From a virus (Duplodnaviria; Heunggongvirae; Uroviricota; Caudoviricetes), in IMG/VR virus record IMGVR_UViG_2690316285_000017: DNA of 6,352 nt; one strand, given 5' to 3'. A model generated the notes under the pieces. The model was not told where the DNA came from. It did no database searches and saw nothing but the letters and a program-made list of their open reading frames with translations. Positions 1 through 6,352 of this stretch are shown piece by piece. The position numbers and the translations under genes are program-made. Position 1 is the first letter of the stretch; each line of letters starts with the position of its first letter.

Positions 1-155
1 TTGAACGTGCTAAAGCTGAAGGGGTACATATGGGGAGGCCTGTAAAAGCTTCTTCAGAGGCTGTACAGACGCTTATTTCACAAGGTAAGACGAGGTTGCA
101 GATTCAGGAAGAGTTAGGAATCTCTAGAGCAACTTATTACAGACTTGCTAAATAA
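1..155 (+). CDS. Small serine recombinase (resolvase/invertase family), 3' end only; gene is truncated at the window start
   Basis: Frame 3 from nt 3 reads ERAKAEGVHMGRPVKASSEAVQTLISQGKTRLQIQEELGISRATYYRLAK then TAA at 153-155. The GRPxK motif followed by an HTH ending ..S(R)AT.YR is the typical C-terminus of Hin/Gin/TnpR-type small serine recombinases. Not in the ORF track because it is 5'-truncated. Confidence 0.6.
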   Translation, partial: ERAKAEGVHMGRPVKASSEAVQTLISQGKTRLQIQEELGISRATYYRLAK

Positions 156-492
156 GTTACTGAATAGTTACATGGATGTAGCTGATATTTGGCTTTTTTG
201 CCAAGGGGGTCACATAGCTGGTGTGACGGGTACTTAGCAGCTACAGACATCTGTCAGATATTTTTGAAGATTCGGGGAAGATGAGATTCAAAGAGGGCTA
301 GTCATTTTTTATAAAAATTTTCAGATTCTGAAAAGTTACTGTACAGATTTTGCACAATCCTACCAAACCTCATAGTTGATTCGATTAGAAGCTAATCTCA
401 TAGAAAGCTCTGTAGCGAGTTTTAACCCCATTTTTAGGGGTAACCTATAGGGATGTACTAACCACCTTAAAATAAAGGGGTAAAATCGCTTA

Positions 493-514
493 GAATGCGT
501 TACAGAGCGTCTGA
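493..514. repeat. Lone copy of the ~26 bp arm motif shared by the two inverted-repeat elements (agaatgcgttacagagcgtctg)
   Basis: Contains cgttacagagcg, a 12/12 match to the 3' arm of element B; its reverse complement cagacgctctgtaacgcattct matches the 5' arm cagacgctctcaatcgcattct at about 18 of 22 positions. Confidence 0.5.
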
Positions 515-847
515 GAAGCCATATTCACAGATTTTACTAAAACCTCAGACTTCTAAGTAGTCTTTTAACAGGAGGGGTTCCCCTATGGTCACATATCCCC
601 TCTCTTTCCACTAAGTAAGCCTTAGCAGCACCTAAGCAACAATTGACTAACAGATTCGGTAGAGTCTATCTCATAGGTCAACTTCATAAACTCAGAGCTA
701 AGTTACCTTGAAAGATTCTACCAAGAACTACACAGGTGTTATTTAGTCTGACTGTGAAGGGATATTTAACGGGAGAAGAGATACGATATAACCCGAAGGG
801 AGAGTATCATCTTAACAATTATCTTAAGAATAAAAACTGAAAAACTC

Positions 848-903
848 TTAACAGATAACCACCTAGAAAGAAGGGTTAACAGATAACCACCTAGAAAGAA
901 GGG
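848..903. repeat. Perfect tandem direct repeat, 2 x 28 bp (ttaacagataaccacctagaaagaaggg)
   Basis: Identical 28-mers at 848-875 and 876-903, head to tail, in a region with no ORF; flanked by further short direct repeats (atcttaa x2, aagtct x2) and the palindrome cctgttaaacagg at about 929-941. Confidence 0.9.
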
Positions 904-1309
904 AACGATAAGACCAGAGGTAGTGACCTGTTAAACAGGCTGTTTCAAAGTCTCTTAAAAGTCTGTTAAGTAAGGTCATGTGAACAATCTTACCATTTTG
1001 TCAATGCTTTTGTCTTTGACCTAAATCAATAAAATGTATCGTTTGATATGCTTTTAAACAAAATAGCTAAAAAATCTTTTTTTAGAGGGGCGCTTCGCTT
1101 GGGGTCACTATGAATGATTTTTCTCTCGCTAAGAGAGCGCTTACAGAGGTCTTTCAAATCTCAATAGCCAGCCGAGGAACACAGGAAACCGAGGGAAGAA
1201 AAACTATTGTGATTACCTTGAACAAGGTCTGTAAAGGTCGTTTAAGAGGTCGGTTAAGAAAGGAGCTTCCCTCTCTGGGGTTATCGCTCTTCTCCCGATT
1301 AGTGGGGCG

Positions 1310-1502
1310 GTTAAGAGGGCTTGAAGTTATCTGTGAAGGTACTGGACAGCCTTATATATTGGGTGATTACAACTCGTTGAAAAATAAGCATTTTTAGAAG
1401 TTACTGTTAAGGTTGCAGAGTTGTCTGTGAAGAGACTTGTCAGTTCTCTATATATAGCTAATTACAACTTATTGAAAAATAAGAACTTTTAGAAATTACT
1501 GT
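1310..1502. repeat. Imperfect tandem direct repeat, 2 x ~96 bp
   Basis: Unit 1 (1310-1407) and unit 2 (1406-1502) align end to end, e.g. gttaagagggcttgaagttatctgtgaagg...attacaactcgttgaaaaataagcatttttagaagttactgt versus gttaaggttgcagagttgtctgtgaagag...attacaacttattgaaaaataagaacttttagaaattactgt. Upstream at 1239-1317 are three short (g)gtcgKttaagaRg motifs. Confidence 0.8.
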
Positions 1503-1584
1503 CAGAGAGGTGAATGCTTGATAGATACGGCTTTCCAGTTCTGTCAAGCTATTTTTTAATAGATAGCACAAAATGCTAAAGACA

Positions 1585-1629
1585 CCCCTGTACCATAGAC
1601 TTCTATCTGTCATCTCGTGCAGGGGTTTT
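1585..1629. terminator. Candidate bidirectional terminator hairpin
   Basis: Stem cccctg (1585-1590) pairs with cagggg (1620-1625), followed by TTTT on the plus strand and lying 15 nt past the stop of the minus-strand ORF. The loop is long (about 29 nt), so this is weak. Confidence 0.3.
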
Positions 1630-1637
1630 GAAGGAGT

Positions 1638-1814
1638 TTAACGGGGGTCTGTGTGGTCGTTATCCTTAAGGTCAAGCGTCCATGTACGACCGAACAGTTT
1701 AAAGACAACAAGCACTCTGACGAGGACGTAGCGAAGTAGCAGGCCTGCAATCAGCCCAATACCTCCACCAGTCCATACATCAGGTGACCCCAGCTCAGGA
1801 GGGAGATTTACCAT
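1638..1814 (-). CDS. Small (58 aa) predicted membrane protein with one hydrophobic helix; an alternative upstream start at 1970 would give 110 aa
   Basis: ATG at 1814-1812 is preceded on the minus strand by cttacaAGGAaaactaATG. The product MVNLPPELGSPDVWTGGGIGLIAGLLLRYVLVRVLVVFKLFGRTWTLDLKDNDHTDPR has a single TM-like segment. The locally GC-richer sequence fits coding DNA. The same frame stays open to an ATG at 1970 that has its own SD (ggggagag) and an extended -10 upstream, but that extension runs through repeat element A. Confidence 0.4.
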   Translation of the reverse strand: MVNLPPELGSPDVWTGGGIGLIAGLLLRYVLVRVLVVFKLFGRTWTLDLKDNDHTDPR

Positions 1815-1828
1815 TAGTTTTCCTTGTA

Positions 1829-1926
1829 AGACGCTCTCAATCGCATTCTGACACAAAAAGTACCTGACCTTATGAGTTGACCTGAAGAGGTCGTTTAACT
1901 CGTTACAGGGCGATTGAAGAGGTCTG
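1829..1926. repeat. Inverted-repeat element A (~98 bp): ~26 bp imperfect-palindromic arms flanking a unique core
   Basis: 5' arm agacgctctcaatcgcattctgac (from 1829) and 3' arm cgttacagggcgattgaagaggtctg (1901-1926). The arms are near reverse complements, and both are near-identical to the arms of element B. Confidence 0.8.
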
Positions 1927-1992
1927 TGTGCAATGCAAAATATGCGACCAAATACATAGCCACGCCTCATATTTTACTCTCCCCATAAACCC

Positions 1993-2021
1993 ATTATACC
2001 ACAGATGTTACAAAAATGTTA
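1993..2021 (-). promoter_or_regulatory. Candidate minus-strand promoter with extended -10 (TGGTATAAT)
   Basis: The minus strand reads ctgTGgTATAATggg (TATAAT = plus 1998 to 1993, TG = plus 2001 to 2000). The -35 region is weak (taacat, plus 2016-2021). Predicted start near plus 1986, directly upstream of the SD/ATG at 1970 and of the leader running towards the ORF at 1814. Confidence 0.45.
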
Positions 2022-2028
2022 AAAATAC

Positions 2029-2058
2029 TTGACATTAGTCTTTGAAAATGCTAATATT
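2029..2058 (+). promoter_or_regulatory. Sigma70-type promoter P1 (TTGACA-N17-TAATAT)
   Basis: TTGACA at 2029-2034, a 17 nt spacer, TAATAT at 2052-2057; about 50 nt upstream of the ATG at 2109. Homologous to P2 over about 65 bp. Confidence 0.6.
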
Positions 2059-2108
2059 GTATATATAGGTTAACAGAATAATAACATCTTATGAGAGTCA
2101 GAACATGA

Positions 2109-2947: not shown

Positions 2948-3220
2948 ATGAAGCAATGGCGAGATGATATTAAACGGTTCTTTGCAACTTACTTCATGAT
3001 TAATTATGAGACAGGAATGCTTGAATGGATTGATGGTGGAGAGGTTAAGACAAGAGATGATGCTTACGGTAATCCAATGATTCGTTATGGCACTCGTGAT
3101 TATTATCTGAAGTATGTCATCTGGTTTTTGCATCATGAAGTTCAGGCAACTAAAAAGATTATCTTCAGGGATGGTAATAAAAGAAATTGCCACCCAAACA
3201 ATTTACTCCTGGAGATTTAA
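2948..3220 (+). CDS. Small protein (90 aa) with a degenerate HNH_3-like motif, probably not catalytic
   Basis: SD aggagg 7 nt upstream. YLKYVIWFLHH...IIFRDGNKRNCHPNNLLL resembles the HNH_3 signature (H.L.W..hG...DHIDGNK.NN..NLR), but FRD replaces the catalytic DH(I)D. Confidence 0.6.
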   Translation: MKQWRDDIKRFFATYFMINYETGMLEWIDGGEVKTRDDAYGNPMIRYGTRDYYLKYVIWFLHHEVQATKKIIFRDGNKRNCHPNNLLLEI

Positions 3221-3420
3221 TGTTATGTATTAAATTCGAATATTTGACAGATAAAATGATTAAGCATGTATCAGACCTGCTCATCAAAGAAGGTGGTTTC
3301 GGTGATGCTTGCAATCCAAAAGATATCTTCATTCATGCCACCAGCCCAAACGCAACACTAAAGACAGCAGTTACAGCGGAATGGTTTGAACGAAATAAAG
3401 CGGAATTAGGTTATTGGTAG
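3220..3420 (+). CDS. Hypothetical small protein (66 aa), translationally coupled to the upstream gene
   Basis: ATG at 3220-3222 overlaps the upstream TAA (3218-3220) as TAATG; SD ggag about 6 nt upstream. The track's longer ORF from 3187 overlaps the preceding gene by 34 nt and has no SD, so the 3220 start is preferred. Confidence 0.55.
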   Translation: MLCIKFEYLTDKMIKHVSDLLIKEGGFGDACNPKDIFIHATSPNATLKTAVTAEWFERNKAELGYW

Positions 3421-3456
3421 TCCGAGACTTTAAGAGAAATTAGAAAAACAGCTTAT

Positions 3457-3576
3457 CAGACGCTCTCAATCGCATTCTAACGCAAAAAACTATCTTATTT
3501 TAGGGTGGGTAATACCACTACAGGCTACCCCTGAAAAAGACTGTTTAGCTCGTTACAGAGCGATTGAGGAGGTCTG
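3457..3576. repeat. Inverted-repeat element B (~120 bp), paralogous to element A
   Basis: 5' arm cagacgctctcaatcgcattctaacgc (from 3457) and 3' arm cgttacagagcgattgaggaggtctg (3551-3576). Intergenic between the gene ending at 3420 and the gene starting at 3597. The arms can form a stem of about 26 bp with about 4 mismatches. Confidence 0.8.
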
Positions 3577-3596
3577 GTAAAAAGGAGATTTTAAAA

Positions 3597-3920
3597 ATGA
3601 ACGAATATGAATTACAGATTTTCATTGATAGCGACACTGCTATGATGGTGCAGGCTTTCGCTGATTCCGGTGTATCAATTGACCTTGATAAATTACTAAA
3701 GCTAATGGCTGAAAACTCAGAAGAAATTGAAGACTTTATTCAGGAAATTGAAACTGGTGAACCGCGTTTTATGTTTCCTGTTACCGACTCAAACATGAAG
3801 CGTCTTATTATCGAAGAAACGAACAAATACAGCGTTAGCCCTGAAAAATATCTCAAGGCGGCTATAGCAATTTTGTATAGCGATAATATTCTGGTGACGG
3901 ATTCGAAGGTGGTGCATTAA
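3597..3920 (+). CDS. Hypothetical acidic protein (107 aa)
   Basis: ATG at 3597 with SD aaggag 9 nt upstream. The track's TTG start at 3564 lies inside the 3' arm of element B and is considered unlikely. Confidence 0.6.
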   Translation: MNEYELQIFIDSDTAMMVQAFADSGVSIDLDKLLKLMAENSEEIEDFIQEIETGEPRFMFPVTDSNMKRLIIEETNKYSVSPEKYLKAAIAILYSDNILVTDSKVVH

Positions 3921-3985
3921 TGGAATTGGTGATTATCTGTTTTGTATTGATTGGTATGATTGCAGGTGCATCTATTAAAGTATAA
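3920..3985 (+). CDS. Candidate 21 aa hydrophobic micropeptide (MELVIICFVLIGMIAGASIKV), translationally coupled
   Basis: ATG overlaps the upstream TAA as TAATG (3918-3922); SD-like gaaggtgg 7 nt upstream; the product is almost entirely hydrophobic. Very short, so it could be fortuitous. Confidence 0.25.
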   Translation: MELVIICFVLIGMIAGASIKV

Positions 3986-4009
3986 ATGTTACCAATCTGT
4001 TAAAAGCTG

Positions 4010-4038
4010 TTGACAGACAACCTTGAGCATGACATAAT
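4010..4038 (+). promoter_or_regulatory. Sigma70-type promoter P2 (TTGACA-N17-CATAAT), a paralogue of P1
   Basis: TTGACA at 4010-4015, 17 nt spacer, CATAAT at 4033-4038. The upstream ATGTTAC-N5-TGTTAAAA elements and the downstream TGTATATAT are conserved with P1. Confidence 0.6.
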
Positions 4039-4045
4039 TGTATAT

Positions 4046-4192
4046 ATGGGGGAGAGCAATTCTCTCTTATTTTTTCTTTCAATAATCCGATGGATGGATA
4101 TTCTGAGTTTGAAAGGTGCAATGCTTTTCGTCCTAGCCTTTCAGGTTGGTCTGAGAGGCTATCTCAAAAAGTCTTTGTTCATTCATTATTGA
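4046..4192 (+). CDS. Candidate leaderless small hydrophobic protein (48 aa); alternatively this stretch is the body of a ~190 nt small RNA
   Basis: ATG at 4046-4048 lies 7-8 nt after the P2 -10, where transcription is expected to start (leaderless). Product MGESNSLLFFLSIIRWMDILSLKGAMLFVLAFQVGLRGYLKKSLFIHY. TGA at 4190-4192 is followed 16 nt later by an intrinsic terminator. Confidence 0.3.
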   Translation: MGESNSLLFFLSIIRWMDILSLKGAMLFVLAFQVGLRGYLKKSLFIHY

Positions 4193-4207
4193 ATCCTTTA
4201 CAGCTTT

Positions 4208-4235
4208 GCCCTAATCATGAGTTAGGGCTTTCTTT
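4208..4235 (+). terminator. Rho-independent terminator
   Basis: Stem GCCCTAA (4208-4214), 7 nt loop, TTAGGGC (4222-4228), then TTTCTTT (4229-4235). Confidence 0.6.
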
Positions 4236-4304
4236 AAGAGTTTTTAAACAGAGCTTTTAAAGAAAGTTTTCCTGAAACTTCGTTAACGTTATAAGCAAAC
4301 CTCC

Positions 4305-4339
4305 AAAGCCCTTCACAGATTATGTTTAGGGCTTTTCTT
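4305..4339 (+). terminator. Second terminator-like hairpin
   Basis: Stem aGCCCT (4307-4312) pairs with AGGGCt (4328-4333) across a 15 nt loop, followed by ttttctt. The stem resembles that of the hairpin at 4208-4235. Confidence 0.35.
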
Positions 4340-4408
4340 AATAGAGCATCTTTAATAAATCGTTAAGTCATCTTCTAAGTGTATTGGCGTTGAAGGTGCT
4401 CTATTAAG
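4337..4408. repeat. Perfect 12 bp inverted repeat (cttaatagagca ... tgctctattaag) separated by 48 bp
   Basis: Arms at 4337-4348 and 4397-4408, directly upstream of the SD/ATG of the gene at 4436; the first arm overlaps the U-tract of the preceding hairpin. Confidence 0.8.
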
Positions 4409-4435
4409 AAATAACCACACTTAGAGGAAATTATA

Positions 4436-5534: not shown

Positions 5535-6335
5535 ATGGCACAATTTAAAGTTGATGATTTTCTGATTGAGTTAAGTTTTAACTCTCAGAAAGTTTTAAAA
5601 GGCTTGGAAAAAGCCGAGAAACAAACGATGCAGGTAGCATCACGAATTGAGAAGCGATTGAATAAGTCGTTTAGAGTTAATCCTACGCCTTTAAATGATT
5701 CTCTCAAACTAATGGAAAGAAATGTCGATAAAACTGTTTCCAAGATTGAGCAGCGTCTTAAAAACACTAGAGCGTTTAAGATTAAAACTGAAATTGAGGA
5801 TACTTTAAAGCCACTTAGACAACCAAGACAGCCACGAATTAGCGGAAGCAGAGCAATCACAGCAGCTTACTCAGCGAATATGAGCAAGCTTCGTGACTTT
5901 AATCCTATGCTTGAGAAGTATTTTAAAAGCCAGTATTACAGCTTAAGCAGTAAATCCAAGACACTTGGAAACGAAACTTTTAATCGTGAGTTAGCAAAGT
6001 TAAATCAGTCTCTTCGTGAAACACTTTCTAAGTTTAACAAGACCACCAGCAAAAATAATCACAGTGAAAATGCTTCAAATAGTCTGGATGTATTAGCTAC
6101 GAGTGCAATCAAAGCAGGTACAGCCATTTATAGTTTTCAGACAGCCTTAGAAGCTTACAGGCGGATTATGGAGGTTGGTCTGAAAAAAGAAGCATCACAA
6201 CGAGCGGCACAATTCGTTTTAGGTGATGAAGGTGCTAAACGAGCTACAGAATTTGTTAAGAATCTTGCTGATAGTAGTGGTGTAGACCAGATTGAAACAT
6301 TAAGCAGTTTTGCTAAGTTTGAAGTGGCACACTGA
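5535..6335 (+). CDS. Hypothetical protein (266 aa), K/S/T/N-rich and probably largely helical
   Basis: SD aagaggtg 9 nt upstream of the ATG; a long ORF that ends with TGA inside the window; no family recognised from sequence. Confidence 0.6.
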   Translation: MAQFKVDDFLIELSFNSQKVLKGLEKAEKQTMQVASRIEKRLNKSFRVNPTPLNDSLKLMERNVDKTVSKIEQRLKNTRAFKIKTEIEDTLKPLRQPRQPRISGSRAITAAYSANMSKLRDFNPMLEKYFKSQYYSLSSKSKTLGNETFNRELAKLNQSLRETLSKFNKTTSKNNHSENASNSLDVLATSAIKAGTAIYSFQTALEAYRRIMEVGLKKEASQRAAQFVLGDEGAKRATEFVKNLADSSGVDQIETLSSFAKFEVAH

Positions 6336-6352
6336 ATTTGGCCACCTGAACA

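Follow-up and report, generated by a model that had tools for sequence, protein, structure and literature searches.

A conserved, gene-poor region of a chromosomal island as the candidate cis-acting region of a Felix-O1-like phage satellite

What is the role of a stretch of nearly 2 kb that lies between two genes and holds almost no open reading frames (ORFs)? The question arises for positions 156-2108 of a 6,352-nucleotide stretch of Shigella sonnei DNA, the whole of which we call the window. On its left the C-terminus of a recombinase ends at 155, and the first gene of an array starts at 2109. The original prediction described the region as ORF-poor and dense in repeats and palindromes, and proposed that it might contain an iteron-bearing origin, a site for attachment or packaging, or a long non-coding RNA that is structured.

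Coding content and conservation of the region

The ORF list bears out the first of these descriptions. No ORF of at least 60 aa lies in 156-1109 on either strand, the sole ORF of at least 40 aa that touches this segment being a 43-aa minus-strand frame (1026-1157), and the remaining ORFs of the region are a 95-aa frame on the plus strand (1110-1397) and a 110-aa frame on the minus strand (1638-1970). The lack of ORFs was thought to be unusual in itself. Although the observation is real, few ORFs are expected because non-coding AT-rich DNA gives few, and what is unusual about the region is instead its conservation. Among about 70 related loci this often exceeds that of the neighbouring genes: 156-2108 aligns in 40-60 of 70 loci with 75-97% nucleotide identity, compared with ~80% for the adjacent genes, and its peak identity is 0.97 versus 0.80 for genes. 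A BLASTN-type comparison, which had been suggested as a check, finds the region kept as non-coding DNA in the ~70 loci, with no disrupted long gene hidden within it, and RefSeq annotates no gene in the equivalent stretch of relatives. E. coli, E. albertii and Citrobacter share the layout, as do many metagenome contigs. The region is also a mosaic: breakpoints recur among relatives, and some cassettes are optional.

When mismatches among relatives are tallied by codon position, codon periodicity is absent across 156-2108 outside a single 58-aa gene, and the most conserved blocks give no RNA-fold signal relative to shuffles. These comparisons indicate that selection acts on the DNA of the region rather than on protein or RNA. 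The plus-strand ORF at 1110-1397, already rejected as a gene, shows no coding pattern (0.186/0.224/0.202 mismatch by codon position). Two exceptions qualify this picture. In ~40% of relatives a 222-aa Dam-like methyltransferase/HTH gene lies between ~1017/1101 and 1141, and therefore the region is not gene-free across the island family. The other exception is a minus-strand gene near the right end, where the following features were found:

1641-1814, minus strand: gene whose 58-aa product has a single hydrophobic helix (MVNLPPELGSPDVWTGGGIGLIAGLLLRYVLVRVLVVFKLFGRTWTLDLKDNDHTDPR), with the Shine-Dalgarno sequence AAGGA 8 nt upstream
1575-1625, minus strand: hairpin CCCCTG...CAGGGG followed by a T-rich tail, read from the sequence
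1993-2057, both strands: predicted back-to-back sigma-70-type promoters (consensus scan, 11/12 and 10/12 matches)
2022 to 1993, minus strand: predicted promoter TTAACA-18-TATAAT (consensus match), facing the 58-aa gene
2029-2057, plus strand: predicted promoter P1, TTGACA-17-TAATAT (consensus match), facing the gene array

The minus-strand ORF had been accepted only from an internal ATG at 1814, and the codon-position pattern supports a real gene starting there: mismatch across relatives is 0.098/0.021/0.141, for comparison with 0.177/0.118/0.290 in p185, and no coding pattern is present in 1815-1970, the upstream part of the 110-aa ORF. The gene is present in 64 of 72 loci and encodes a membrane protein that annotation has missed; the protein has no Pfam, PHROG, NCBIfam or PADLOC match. 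A small one-helix protein of this kind recalls the hydrophobic toxins of type I toxin-antitoxin pairs, whose genes are overlapped by an antisense RNA; for such an RNA against the leader or 5' end of the 58-aa gene, the consensus scan listed no promoter-like site apart from a weak 9/12 plus-strand site far upstream at 467-496. The hairpin at 1575-1625 is likely its terminator. Windows across 1501-1625 fold with z of -3.6 to -3.7 on the plus strand and -1.5 to -1.6 on the minus strand, and conservation is lowest (0.44) in the hairpin loop (1591-1620), whereas the arms on either side of it are conserved. Conservation across the promoter region is 90-93%, and 69 of 72 loci have it.

The island and the genome ends of Felix-O1-like phages

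Taken together with its surroundings, 156-2108 looks like a conserved control region of a chromosomal island of ~11 kb, bounded by a large serine integrase (a 500-547-aa serine recombinase at one end). The island has a match in 544 of 5,426 complete E. coli genomes (~10%), always on the chromosome, and its insertion sites differ (ymdF/wrbA, yciI/tonB, yecD); a blastn search of PLSDB plasmids with the region gave no match. Like a satellite, the island is a mobile integrative element with its own integrase and several chromosomal sites, and its virion and replication genes are incomplete, although it carries helper-related genes and sites. Its only phage-like proteins are a tape measure (~28% identity over the full length) and the product of the next tail gene (~70%), both of which find their best matches in Ounavirinae, the Felix-O1-like virulent phages. 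The small island proteins gave nothing but one weak HNH match and tape-measure matches against Pfam, PHROGs, NCBIfam, PADLOC and PDB sequences, and searches of Pfam, PHROGs, NCBIfam and PDB sequences found no Rep, primase or helicase family in any island protein. A terminase small subunit, a replication initiator and a capsid-size factor were likewise not found in the island. One protein, p185, is an orphan, with 19 matches among 1.84 billion representatives in an exhaustive HMMER search, including three distant relatives; its AlphaFold2 model, built from an 18-sequence alignment, has a pLDDT of 53 and is too poor for a fold search.

The metagenome contig OOBX01000469.1 carries the 11,477-bp island unit 2.0 times, head to tail and 99.99% identical, without host genes and with the integrase joined to the island left end. 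This arrangement may have arisen when a circle was misassembled, or it may reflect a tandem integration. The tape measure gene in the window is cut by an IS911 end, and given this the S. sonnei copy of the island may be inactive.

The recombinase to the left of the region is distinct from the large integrase:

1-155, plus strand: 3' end of a small serine recombinase (Mpi/invertase-like, HTH C-terminus; from the ORF list)

A full-length homologue in one related locus matches the Mpi-family invertase model NF009949 at 4e-30, below the model's curated cut-off. Two other loci (L002 and L082) carry a different allele in the opposite orientation, the gene is absent from the 11,477-bp tandem unit, and a conserved 233-nt block lies to its left. 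The small recombinase gene is thus a swappable cassette inside conserved non-coding DNA.

By sequence comparison, two segments of 156-2108 are homologous to the genome-terminus region of the helper-type phages. The phage matches fall between convergent gene blocks, in a gene-free gap of 1.67 kb that holds the annotated 581-bp direct terminal repeat (DTR) of phage Pr103Blw (PMC8303462). We took the DTR boundaries from the MW481326 annotation and from where other records end: PP952733, MG969404 and MG969405 have their ends at the annotated boundaries. The start of the JLBYU28 record was dropped as terminus evidence, that record merely beginning at a gene boundary. The phage-like patches are:

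~184-358, plus strand: homologue of the DTR right end, collinear with its final 51 nt and ~125 nt beyond
809-831, plus strand: two TCTTAA(C/G)A(A/T)T units (TRF period 12), a borderline likeness to three CTTAACA units at the DTR left end
881-950, plus strand: homologue of the DTR interior, ~250-330 nt from the DTR left end, present in 45 of 72 loci

Homology to the boundary of the helper's terminal repeat emerges from both shuffle tests and a family profile. The 184-358 segment aligns to the phage with a local score of 79, against 30 +/- 5 for shuffles, and within it 215-298 aligns best exactly across the DTR boundary, a result reached by 2 of 500 shuffles; 184-234 taken alone gives no significant match in the shuffle test. 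A profile built from 32 island variants and run against the 88-kb phage genome returned a single match, at 531-697 across the DTR end (581|582), with E=1e-10. The equivalent of the DTR right boundary is accordingly placed, as a prediction, at window position 234|235, and among the contig ends of related loci none cluster there. For the second segment, 881-950, blastn gives 82-88% identity to REP5 and CHB7; it maps to DTR positions 259-303 of Pr103Blw, and its family profile matches DTR 256-332 with E=6e-5. At 809-831, a 21-nt alignment to phage non-coding positions 472-492 is reached by 1 of 200 shuffles.

A short core motif, TGTTAA/G, occurs at 5.1/kb in 156-2108 versus 1.2/kb in the rest of the window, an enrichment of ~4-fold. 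The phage terminus gap holds the same core in 11-bp phase, with 26 plus-strand copies in 1.67 kb versus 1.9/kb elsewhere. The motif TATATAT(A/T/G)G beside the island promoters was considered as a mimic of a phage promoter and rejected, as it is absent from the phage genome.

These patches are short (~60-175 nt, 61-88% identity) and recur in 36-45 of 72 island loci. They are not the most conserved parts of 156-2108, the best-conserved blocks of which have no phage counterpart. Compared with the phage junction they are permuted, in that the right-end segment lies ~580 bp before the interior segment, and the two DTR boundaries were not found in helper order and spacing, the left-boundary match being borderline (1 of 200 shuffles). 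The patches could be relics inherited from a phage ancestor rather than working sites.

Nonetheless, our preferred reading, which we hold with moderate confidence, is that 156-2108 is the cis-acting region of a satellite of Felix-O1-like (Ounavirinae) phages, with a mimic of the helper terminus used for packaging and/or replication. Of the functions first proposed, packaging is the best supported, albeit indirectly, given the terminus homology and one segment that spans the DTR right boundary, whereas an attachment site, paired with it in the same proposal, finds no support. Infection by a Felix-O1-like phage would lead to excision of the island by the large serine integrase, and the excised island would be amplified as circles or concatemers. 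The phage terminase and/or terminus-binding proteins would then recognise the copied terminus sequences, and island DNA would be cut and taken up into phage heads; as the island lacks capsid-resizing genes, it would probably be packaged in the form of multimers. The weakest step is the start of replication, for which an AT-rich block at 961-1110 and the phased repeats that flank it would be the best candidate.

Repeats, hairpins and alternative functions

The abundance of repeats and palindromes reported earlier is real: repeat searches and TRF recover tandem, phased, direct and palindromic repeats alike. Those between and beyond the phage-like patches, with the non-coding blocks, are as follows:

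560-800, no strand: island-specific non-coding block, identity among relatives 0.71-0.89, no codon periodicity
848-903, plus strand: perfect tandem duplication of 28 bp, two copies (TRF score 112), the second running into the phage-like patch
928-975, plus strand: near-palindrome CCTGTTAAACAGG, then 11-bp-phased GTCNNTTAA/CTGTTAA repeats (TRF period 11 at 947-969)
961-1110, no strand: most conserved non-coding block, 94-97% identity among relatives
1226-1316, plus strand: 12-bp-phased GGTC(G/T)(G/T)TTAAGA repeats at 1226-1259 with a further copy at 1306, 0.87 identity among relatives
1325-1407 and 1419-1502, plus strand: direct repeat pair, 83-84 nt each, 94-95 nt apart, both copies in 61 of 72 loci

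A profile of the 560-800 block gave no significant phage match in nhmmer searches. The 961-1110 block likewise has no phage homologue by profile search, no codon periodicity and no RNA-fold signal, and positions 980-1085 within it are 25.5% GC, against 39% for the whole region; it is a candidate DNA-level site, either an origin unwinding element or a protein-binding site. The pair at 1325-1502 appears to be an old duplication kept across the island family. It bears a weak likeness to the TGTTAAG array of the right half of the DTR (score 49.5 versus 29 +/- 4.3 for shuffles, reached by 0 of 200) and has no phage match by family profile.

The alternative that survives best is that the region is chiefly a plasmid-type origin, its direct repeats acting as iterons for an island initiator and its phage-like patches incidental. 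Several features speak for it: the 25%-GC block at 980-1085 lies inside the most conserved stretch, so that the adjacent AT-rich unwinding region expected of an origin is present; phased 11-12-bp repeats of the GTCNNTTAA/CTGTTAA group stand on both sides (947-969 and 1235-1259); the 95-nt duplication is conserved; and the closed tandem form implies that the island replicates. However, the most iteron-like feature, the 28-bp tandem, is a duplication private to the window and not an iteron array, as one copy of the unit occurs in 26 of 72 relatives and two copies in none of the 72. The other repeats are 2-4 degenerate copies of 11-12-bp units, or the one 95-nt pair, whereas iterons would be at least three regular, conserved direct repeats of ~17-22 bp, and searches of Pfam, PHROGs, NCBIfam and PDB sequences turned up no Rep-like protein. 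An origin would also leave unexplained why the single match at E=1e-10 in the whole phage genome falls across the DTR end. The origin first proposed is thus possible, given the AT-rich block and its flanking phased repeats, but the 28-bp tandem does not serve as evidence of iterons, and no initiator gene was found. We consider a plasmid-type origin unlikely as the chief function, although it is compatible with the satellite explanation and does not exclude it.

The remaining alternatives turn on three palindromic elements of ~100-150 nt:

407-556, minus strand: copy A, in the opposite orientation to B and C (repeat families I1/I2, alignment)
1823-1926, plus strand: copy B, optional (repeats D5 and D7, alignment), in the leader of the 58-aa gene
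3452-3577, plus strand: copy C, outside 156-2108, between genes p77 and p107

Copy A occurs in some relatives only and always at the same site, and its hairpin is weakly better than shuffles (z -1.9). Copy B is a clean insertion or deletion of ~97 nt at a fixed site, with precise presence or absence among relatives, and folds at -36.7 kcal/mol (z -2.8). Copy C folds at -49.2 kcal/mol (z -5.6), with z -4.9 for the opposite strand. The suggestion from locus L001 that A and C are always gained or lost together was rejected, the three sites being occupied independently. A joint consensus fold of the three element types was also discarded, as it collapses to 8 invariant pairs with no compensatory change.

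The hairpins could be antisense or processing signals, forming an immunity switch like P4 CI or P1 c4. The folding energy of C in particular (-49 kcal/mol) and the z-score of B would suit such a role, as would their positions, since B is part of the leader of the 58-aa gene and C directly precedes the ribosome-binding site of the gene that follows it; with A inverted relative to B and C, some transcripts could pair. Yet the independent occupancy of the three sites implies that the elements are dispensable, the three subtypes share no pairing register or covariation, both strands fold about equally well, as a DNA palindrome would, and the most conserved blocks lack a fold signal altogether. Rfam 15, including the C4/P4 CI and HEARO families, produced no match at E<=1 when both strands of the whole window were searched. 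A regulatory RNA is in our judgment improbable, and the long structured non-coding RNA first envisaged also finds no support, as three short zones only beat shuffles and two of the hairpins are optional insertions.

Still less probable is a role for A, B and C as res or inversion sites of the small serine recombinase, at which intervening segments would be flipped or deleted. The adjacent gene is Mpi/invertase-like, the copies are roughly res-sized and lie in direct and inverted orientation, and the recombinase gene is found in either orientation across strains. However, the large alignment blocks are collinear in 70 of 70 loci, with no inversion or deletion endpoints in the elements; the elements are present in the island unit that lacks the small recombinase gene; and the recombinases of opposite orientation are different alleles in a swapped cassette, not a flipped segment. 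Finally, we give very little credence to the region being the functionless, decaying remains of phage or island genes: the S. sonnei copy is damaged elsewhere by the IS911 end and the region is mosaic, but decay is largely refuted by identity among relatives that equals or exceeds that of adjacent genes (0.94-0.97 over 150 nt), by a layout kept across species, by the failure to recover a frame-shifted long ORF in any relative, bar the intact Dam cassette, and by a p185 protein identity of 62-95%, which argues against very recent clonal copies.

Known satellites and implications

Several known systems resemble parts of the proposed satellite. PICMI satellites of virulent vibriophages lack capsid-remodelling genes and are packaged as 8-mer concatemers (PMC10803314). 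Like them, the island is a small integrative element without genes for capsid remodelling, and it would depend on a virulent phage. A concatemer is the likely packaged substrate of PICMI, and for the island a two-unit head-to-tail contig exists. PICMI is ~6 kb, lies beside fis, carries a tyrosine integrase and AlpA and encodes a primase (PMC10803314), whereas the island is ~11 kb with a large serine integrase. PICMI concatemers have random, headful-like ends and no identified helper-like packaging sequence, whereas the island has homology to the terminus of a DTR-type helper. The island also differs from PICMI in its genes for a tape measure and another tail protein. Eight units of 11.1-11.5 kb are roughly compatible with a phage genome of 84-90 kb, a comparison that does not discriminate.

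The ICP1 satellite PLE of Vibrio cholerae resembles the island in its large serine recombinase, its dependence on a single lineage of virulent myophage, as proposed for the island, and its long non-coding repeat regions, which in PLE hold the origin. PLE, however, is ~18 kb, encodes a RepA initiator and a capsid-size factor, and is not known to have sequence or protein similarity to the island. The link of the island to its putative helper, unlike that of PLE, rests on DNA homology in the terminus region and two tail genes.

For the phage-like patches themselves, the closest parallel is the T7-type concatemer junction, a short cis-acting DNA across the terminal-repeat boundary, of which 184-358 would span the Felix-O1-like equivalent. 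Plasmids with a T7 origin and a T7 concatemer junction were reportedly packaged by T7, in work by Chung and Hinkle from 1990. The terminus-like pieces of the island differ in being permuted and partial and have no sequence relationship to T7. We know of no mapping of packaging signals in Felix-O1-like phages. In P4 (cos/crr/ori) and in SaPI and PICI elements (pac or cos), a gene-poor stretch combines a copy of the helper packaging site with the satellite's own origin and a divergent-promoter switch. However, they exploit temperate cos or pac phages and encode identifiable primases, initiators or TerS. The gene content of the island is not known to resemble that of the four families covered by SatelliteFinder.

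A more specific proposal, which we put forward tentatively and regard as possible rather than probable, is that the island is the first satellite of Felix-O1-like phages, that its region is a rearranged miniature of the helper ends at which the DTR-type terminase would cut and package multimers at defined sites, and that its shorter tape measure would alter the tails of the particles. To our knowledge, packaging at defined sites by a helper's DTR-type terminase has not been described for any satellite, and the literature searched contained no account of the island or of a satellite that parasitises Felix-O1-like phages.

Felix-O1-like phages are classic typing and biocontrol phages of Salmonella and E. 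coli, and as far as we know they are regarded as strictly lytic, no genetic parasite of theirs having been described. For genome annotation, our results indicate that hundreds of RefSeq genomes leave unannotated a 2-kb stretch of functional DNA that includes a missed 58-aa gene. If the island does hijack these phages, it would affect the efficacy of phage therapy and gene transfer and might act in phage defence. It would also open a way to study the recognition and cleavage of genome ends in Ounavirinae, with the short sequences common to island and phage as ready candidates for the recognition sites.

Layout and conservation of the gene-poor region

The original prediction described an ORF-poor, repeat-dense gap at window 156–2108, and both parts of that description held: the recombinase C-terminus ends at 155, the gene array starts at 2109 with short ORFs only between them, and a repeat listing and a tandem-repeat scan confirmed that the repeats are real. 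The gap is more than chance. In annotated relatives, a small serine recombinase is followed by about 1.9–2.0 kb without an annotated gene, then by 6–7 small hypothetical genes, a tape measure gene, a gene annotated as 'phage baseplate protein' and a large serine recombinase. The whole forms an island of about 11.1–11.5 kb, inserted at ymdF/wrbA, at yciI/tonB or beside yecD. A chromosomal match was present in 544 of the 5,426 complete E. coli genomes searched, and apart from the IS end we found no plasmid or phage relatives of the window. The first array protein, p185 (2109–2666), matches Shigella sonnei proteins at 100% identity. The last 36 bases of the window are an IS911 end; because this IS911 (IS3-family) terminal sequence (6317–6352) interrupts the tape measure gene, the island copy carried by this S. 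sonnei is probably defective.

We compared the region with 70 related loci (p185 identities of 62–95%). Of these, 40–60 aligned with 156–2108, at 75–97% identity in nucleotides, the average for adjacent genes being about 80%. Among the related loci, none has the 28-bp tandem duplication seen in this window.

Features of the region, with associated sites (window coordinates; L numbers here are related island loci)
407–556, inverted: palindromic element of 100–150 nt, copy A
848–903: perfect tandem of two 28-bp units
947–969 and 1235–1259: phased GTCNNTTAA/CTGTTAA-type repeats of 11–12 bp
961–1110: best-conserved stretch, identity 0.94–0.97, holding a 25%-GC segment (980–1085)
~1017/1101–1141: insertion point of a Dam-like/HTH gene in relatives (L021 1177–1845; also L022, L026, L034 and others)
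1325–1407 and 1419–1502: direct-repeat pair, 83–84 nt each, 94–95 nt apart
1381–1590: also among the best-conserved stretches
1621–1830: also among the best-conserved stretches
1823–1926: palindromic element, copy B
1981–2070: promoter zone, also among the best-conserved stretches
2022..1993, minus strand: promoter match TTAACA-18-TATAAT, upstream of the 58-aa gene
2029–2057, plus strand: promoter match P1, TTGACA-17-TAATAT, facing the gene array
3452–3577: palindromic element, copy C, outside the region
5535–6335, with L001 17384–19450 and 19624–20394: tape measure and the tail gene after it

The 58-aa minus-strand ORF (ATG 1814 to 1641) that had been accepted proved to be a genuine gene: mismatches occur at rates of 0.098/0.021/0.141 at the three codon positions, and its product has one hydrophobic helix. 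The same type of analysis found the N-terminal extension of this ORF to 1970 to be non-coding, as is the plus-strand ORF at 1110–1397. The 58-aa gene is followed by a hairpin at 1575–1625, with conserved arms and a variable loop, and then by a T-rich tail, a combination that resembles a terminator for this gene. The minus-strand promoter match and P1 lie back to back. A second non-coding gap of ~450 bp (3986–4435) contains a promoter match, P2 (TTGACA-17-CATAAT, then TGTATATATGG), in the same layout as P1 at 2029–2070; a terminator-like hairpin immediately follows P2 (4046–4070), with more hairpins at 4208–4228 and 4334–4411. A hydrophobic 21-codon ORF (MELVIICFVLIGMIAGASIKV), read from the sequence at 3920–3985, shares bases with the stop codon of the gene before it.

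The island family is mosaic, with recurrent breakpoints and several cassettes that are optional. The small recombinase cassette varies in allele and orientation and is missing from some islands, and about 40% of loci carry a 222-aa fusion of a Dam-like N6-adenine methyltransferase with a resolvase-type HTH. The HNH block also differs between relatives: an HNH endonuclease (90 aa), a 77-aa gene and element C (2948–3577) are swapped in some islands for an unrelated 128-aa gene (L001 14872–15386). Left of the small recombinase cassette lies a conserved 233-nt non-coding block (L002 10803–11035; L001 11094–11326), so the conserved non-coding region reaches past the left edge of the window. This block carries a CCTGTTAATAACAGG palindrome resembling window 928–940.

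Homology to the Felix-O1-like genome terminus

A distant blastn search of 156–2108 against 50,697 phage records matched Ounavirinae only, in unannotated DNA, over window 881–950, and local blastn gave a second phage-like patch at 299–339. In the phages, both patches map to a 1.67-kb gene-free gap separating convergent gene blocks. For the Felixounavirus genome Pr103Blw (MW481326), a PhageTerm-derived direct terminal repeat (DTR) of 581 bp is annotated at both record ends (PMC8303462). This DTR sits mid-gap, between a left flank of 457 bp and a right flank of 632 bp. Three further records, PP952733, MG969404 and MG969405, have their ends at these boundaries, and DTRs have been reported for four more Felixounavirus genomes (PMC11737134).

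Window 893–934 corresponds to 259–303 nt inside the DTR, and window 307–346 to 73–113 nt past its right end. By Smith–Waterman alignment, the latter patch extends to window 184–358, a stretch collinear with the final 51 DTR nucleotides and ~125 nt beyond (score 79, versus 30 ± 5 for dinucleotide shuffles). The best alignment of window 215–298 runs exactly across the DTR boundary, with a score reached by 2 of 500 shuffles, which puts the counterpart of the boundary at window 234|235; window 184–234 by itself has no significant similarity to the phage. A profile of 32 island variants of window 183–360 found a single match in the 88-kb phage genome (531–697, E = 1e-10), its posterior support peaking right at the DTR boundary, and a profile of window 760–1110 matched DTR 256–332 (E = 6e-5). 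Weaker likenesses link the TCTTAACAAT units at 809–831 to the DTR left end (1/200 shuffles) and the 95-nt repeats to the TGTTAAG array of the DTR right half (0/200 shuffles); the family profile had no match in that right half. Profile searches with blocks 940–2108 found no phage counterpart. In the island the phage-like segments stand in a different order from that in the phage: the right-end segment comes first, ~580 bp upstream of the interior one.

The phage gap is full of (C/T)TGTTA(A/G) units at 11-bp phase, and this core is ~4-fold enriched in 156–2108 versus the rest of the window. Dozens of such units, at the same phase, occupy the DTR and flanks of Felix-O1-like phages (2750–3330 in L003, phage REP5; 1–581 in Pr103Blw), where GenBank annotates generic repeat_region features only. 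This array at the phage genome ends looks like one that binds protein.

Among the functions originally proposed for 156–2108, a packaging site is the best supported, the sequence comparisons suggesting a satellite cis region that copies a DTR-type helper terminus. An attachment site was not supported, and neither was a long structured non-coding RNA, an Rfam check of both strands giving no match at E ≤ 1.

Palindromic elements and a tandem island contig

Copy C of the palindromic element forms a ~125-nt hairpin (−49 kcal/mol, z −5.6), and its opposite strand folds nearly equally well; copies B (z −2.8) and A (z −1.9) fold progressively less well. Among relatives, the element is restricted to three fixed sites, each occupied or empty independently, and copy B is a clean insertion/deletion of ~97 nt. 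A joint fold comparison of the three element subtypes revealed no common pairing register and no compensatory changes, so that conserved RNA was not demonstrable; nor were recombination sites, since neither inversion nor deletion between copies was seen in 70 loci. Optional occupancy, lack of covariation and lack of rearrangement together mark the elements as palindromic insertions that the island can do without. An effect on mRNA processing or stability is possible, but the elements are not the core function of 156–2108.

Contig OOBX01000469.1 (23,009 bp; loci L034 and L035) comprises 2.0 head-to-tail units of 11,477 bp that are 99.99% identical, with one mismatch. In it, the integrase gene is joined via ~110 nt to the island left-end block, and we found no host genes in the contig. 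The contig probably represents the excised island as a circle or concatemer; it could also stem from a circle misassembled as a tandem, or from a tandem insertion.

The island as a proposed satellite

Compared along its full length, the island tape measure shares ~28% identity with counterparts in Felixounavirus and related phages, and the tail gene after it has ~70% identity to its phage counterpart. When all island proteins were compared by tblastn with the complete Pr103Blw genome, only these two matched. Protein-family searches gave no family assignment for the other island proteins; p185 has 19 relatives only among 1.84 billion representatives, and its structure model was unusable (pLDDT 53).

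These findings are most simply explained if the island parasitises Felix-O1-like virulent phages as a satellite and has its cis-acting region in 156–2108. The analysis itself shows the homologies, the conservation, the small gene and the tandem contig; induction, cutting and packaging of the island, as well as origin function, we infer. The helper-terminus mimic (184–358 and ~805–950) would be recognised by the helper terminase or by terminus-binding proteins; the AT-rich island-specific block, strongly conserved and flanked by phased repeats, is a candidate origin; and the cis region would also combine a divergent promoter switch with a small membrane-protein gene. Phage T7 packages plasmids bearing the T7 concatemer junction. 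PICMI satellites (PMC10803314) offer an analogy that makes packaging of the island as multimers plausible. Our literature searches, whose limited coverage makes them no proof of novelty, found no description of the island or of any Ounavirinae satellite. The island tape measure has 688–694 aa, versus 742 aa in Pr103Blw, and a shorter satellite-encoded tape measure could alter tail length.
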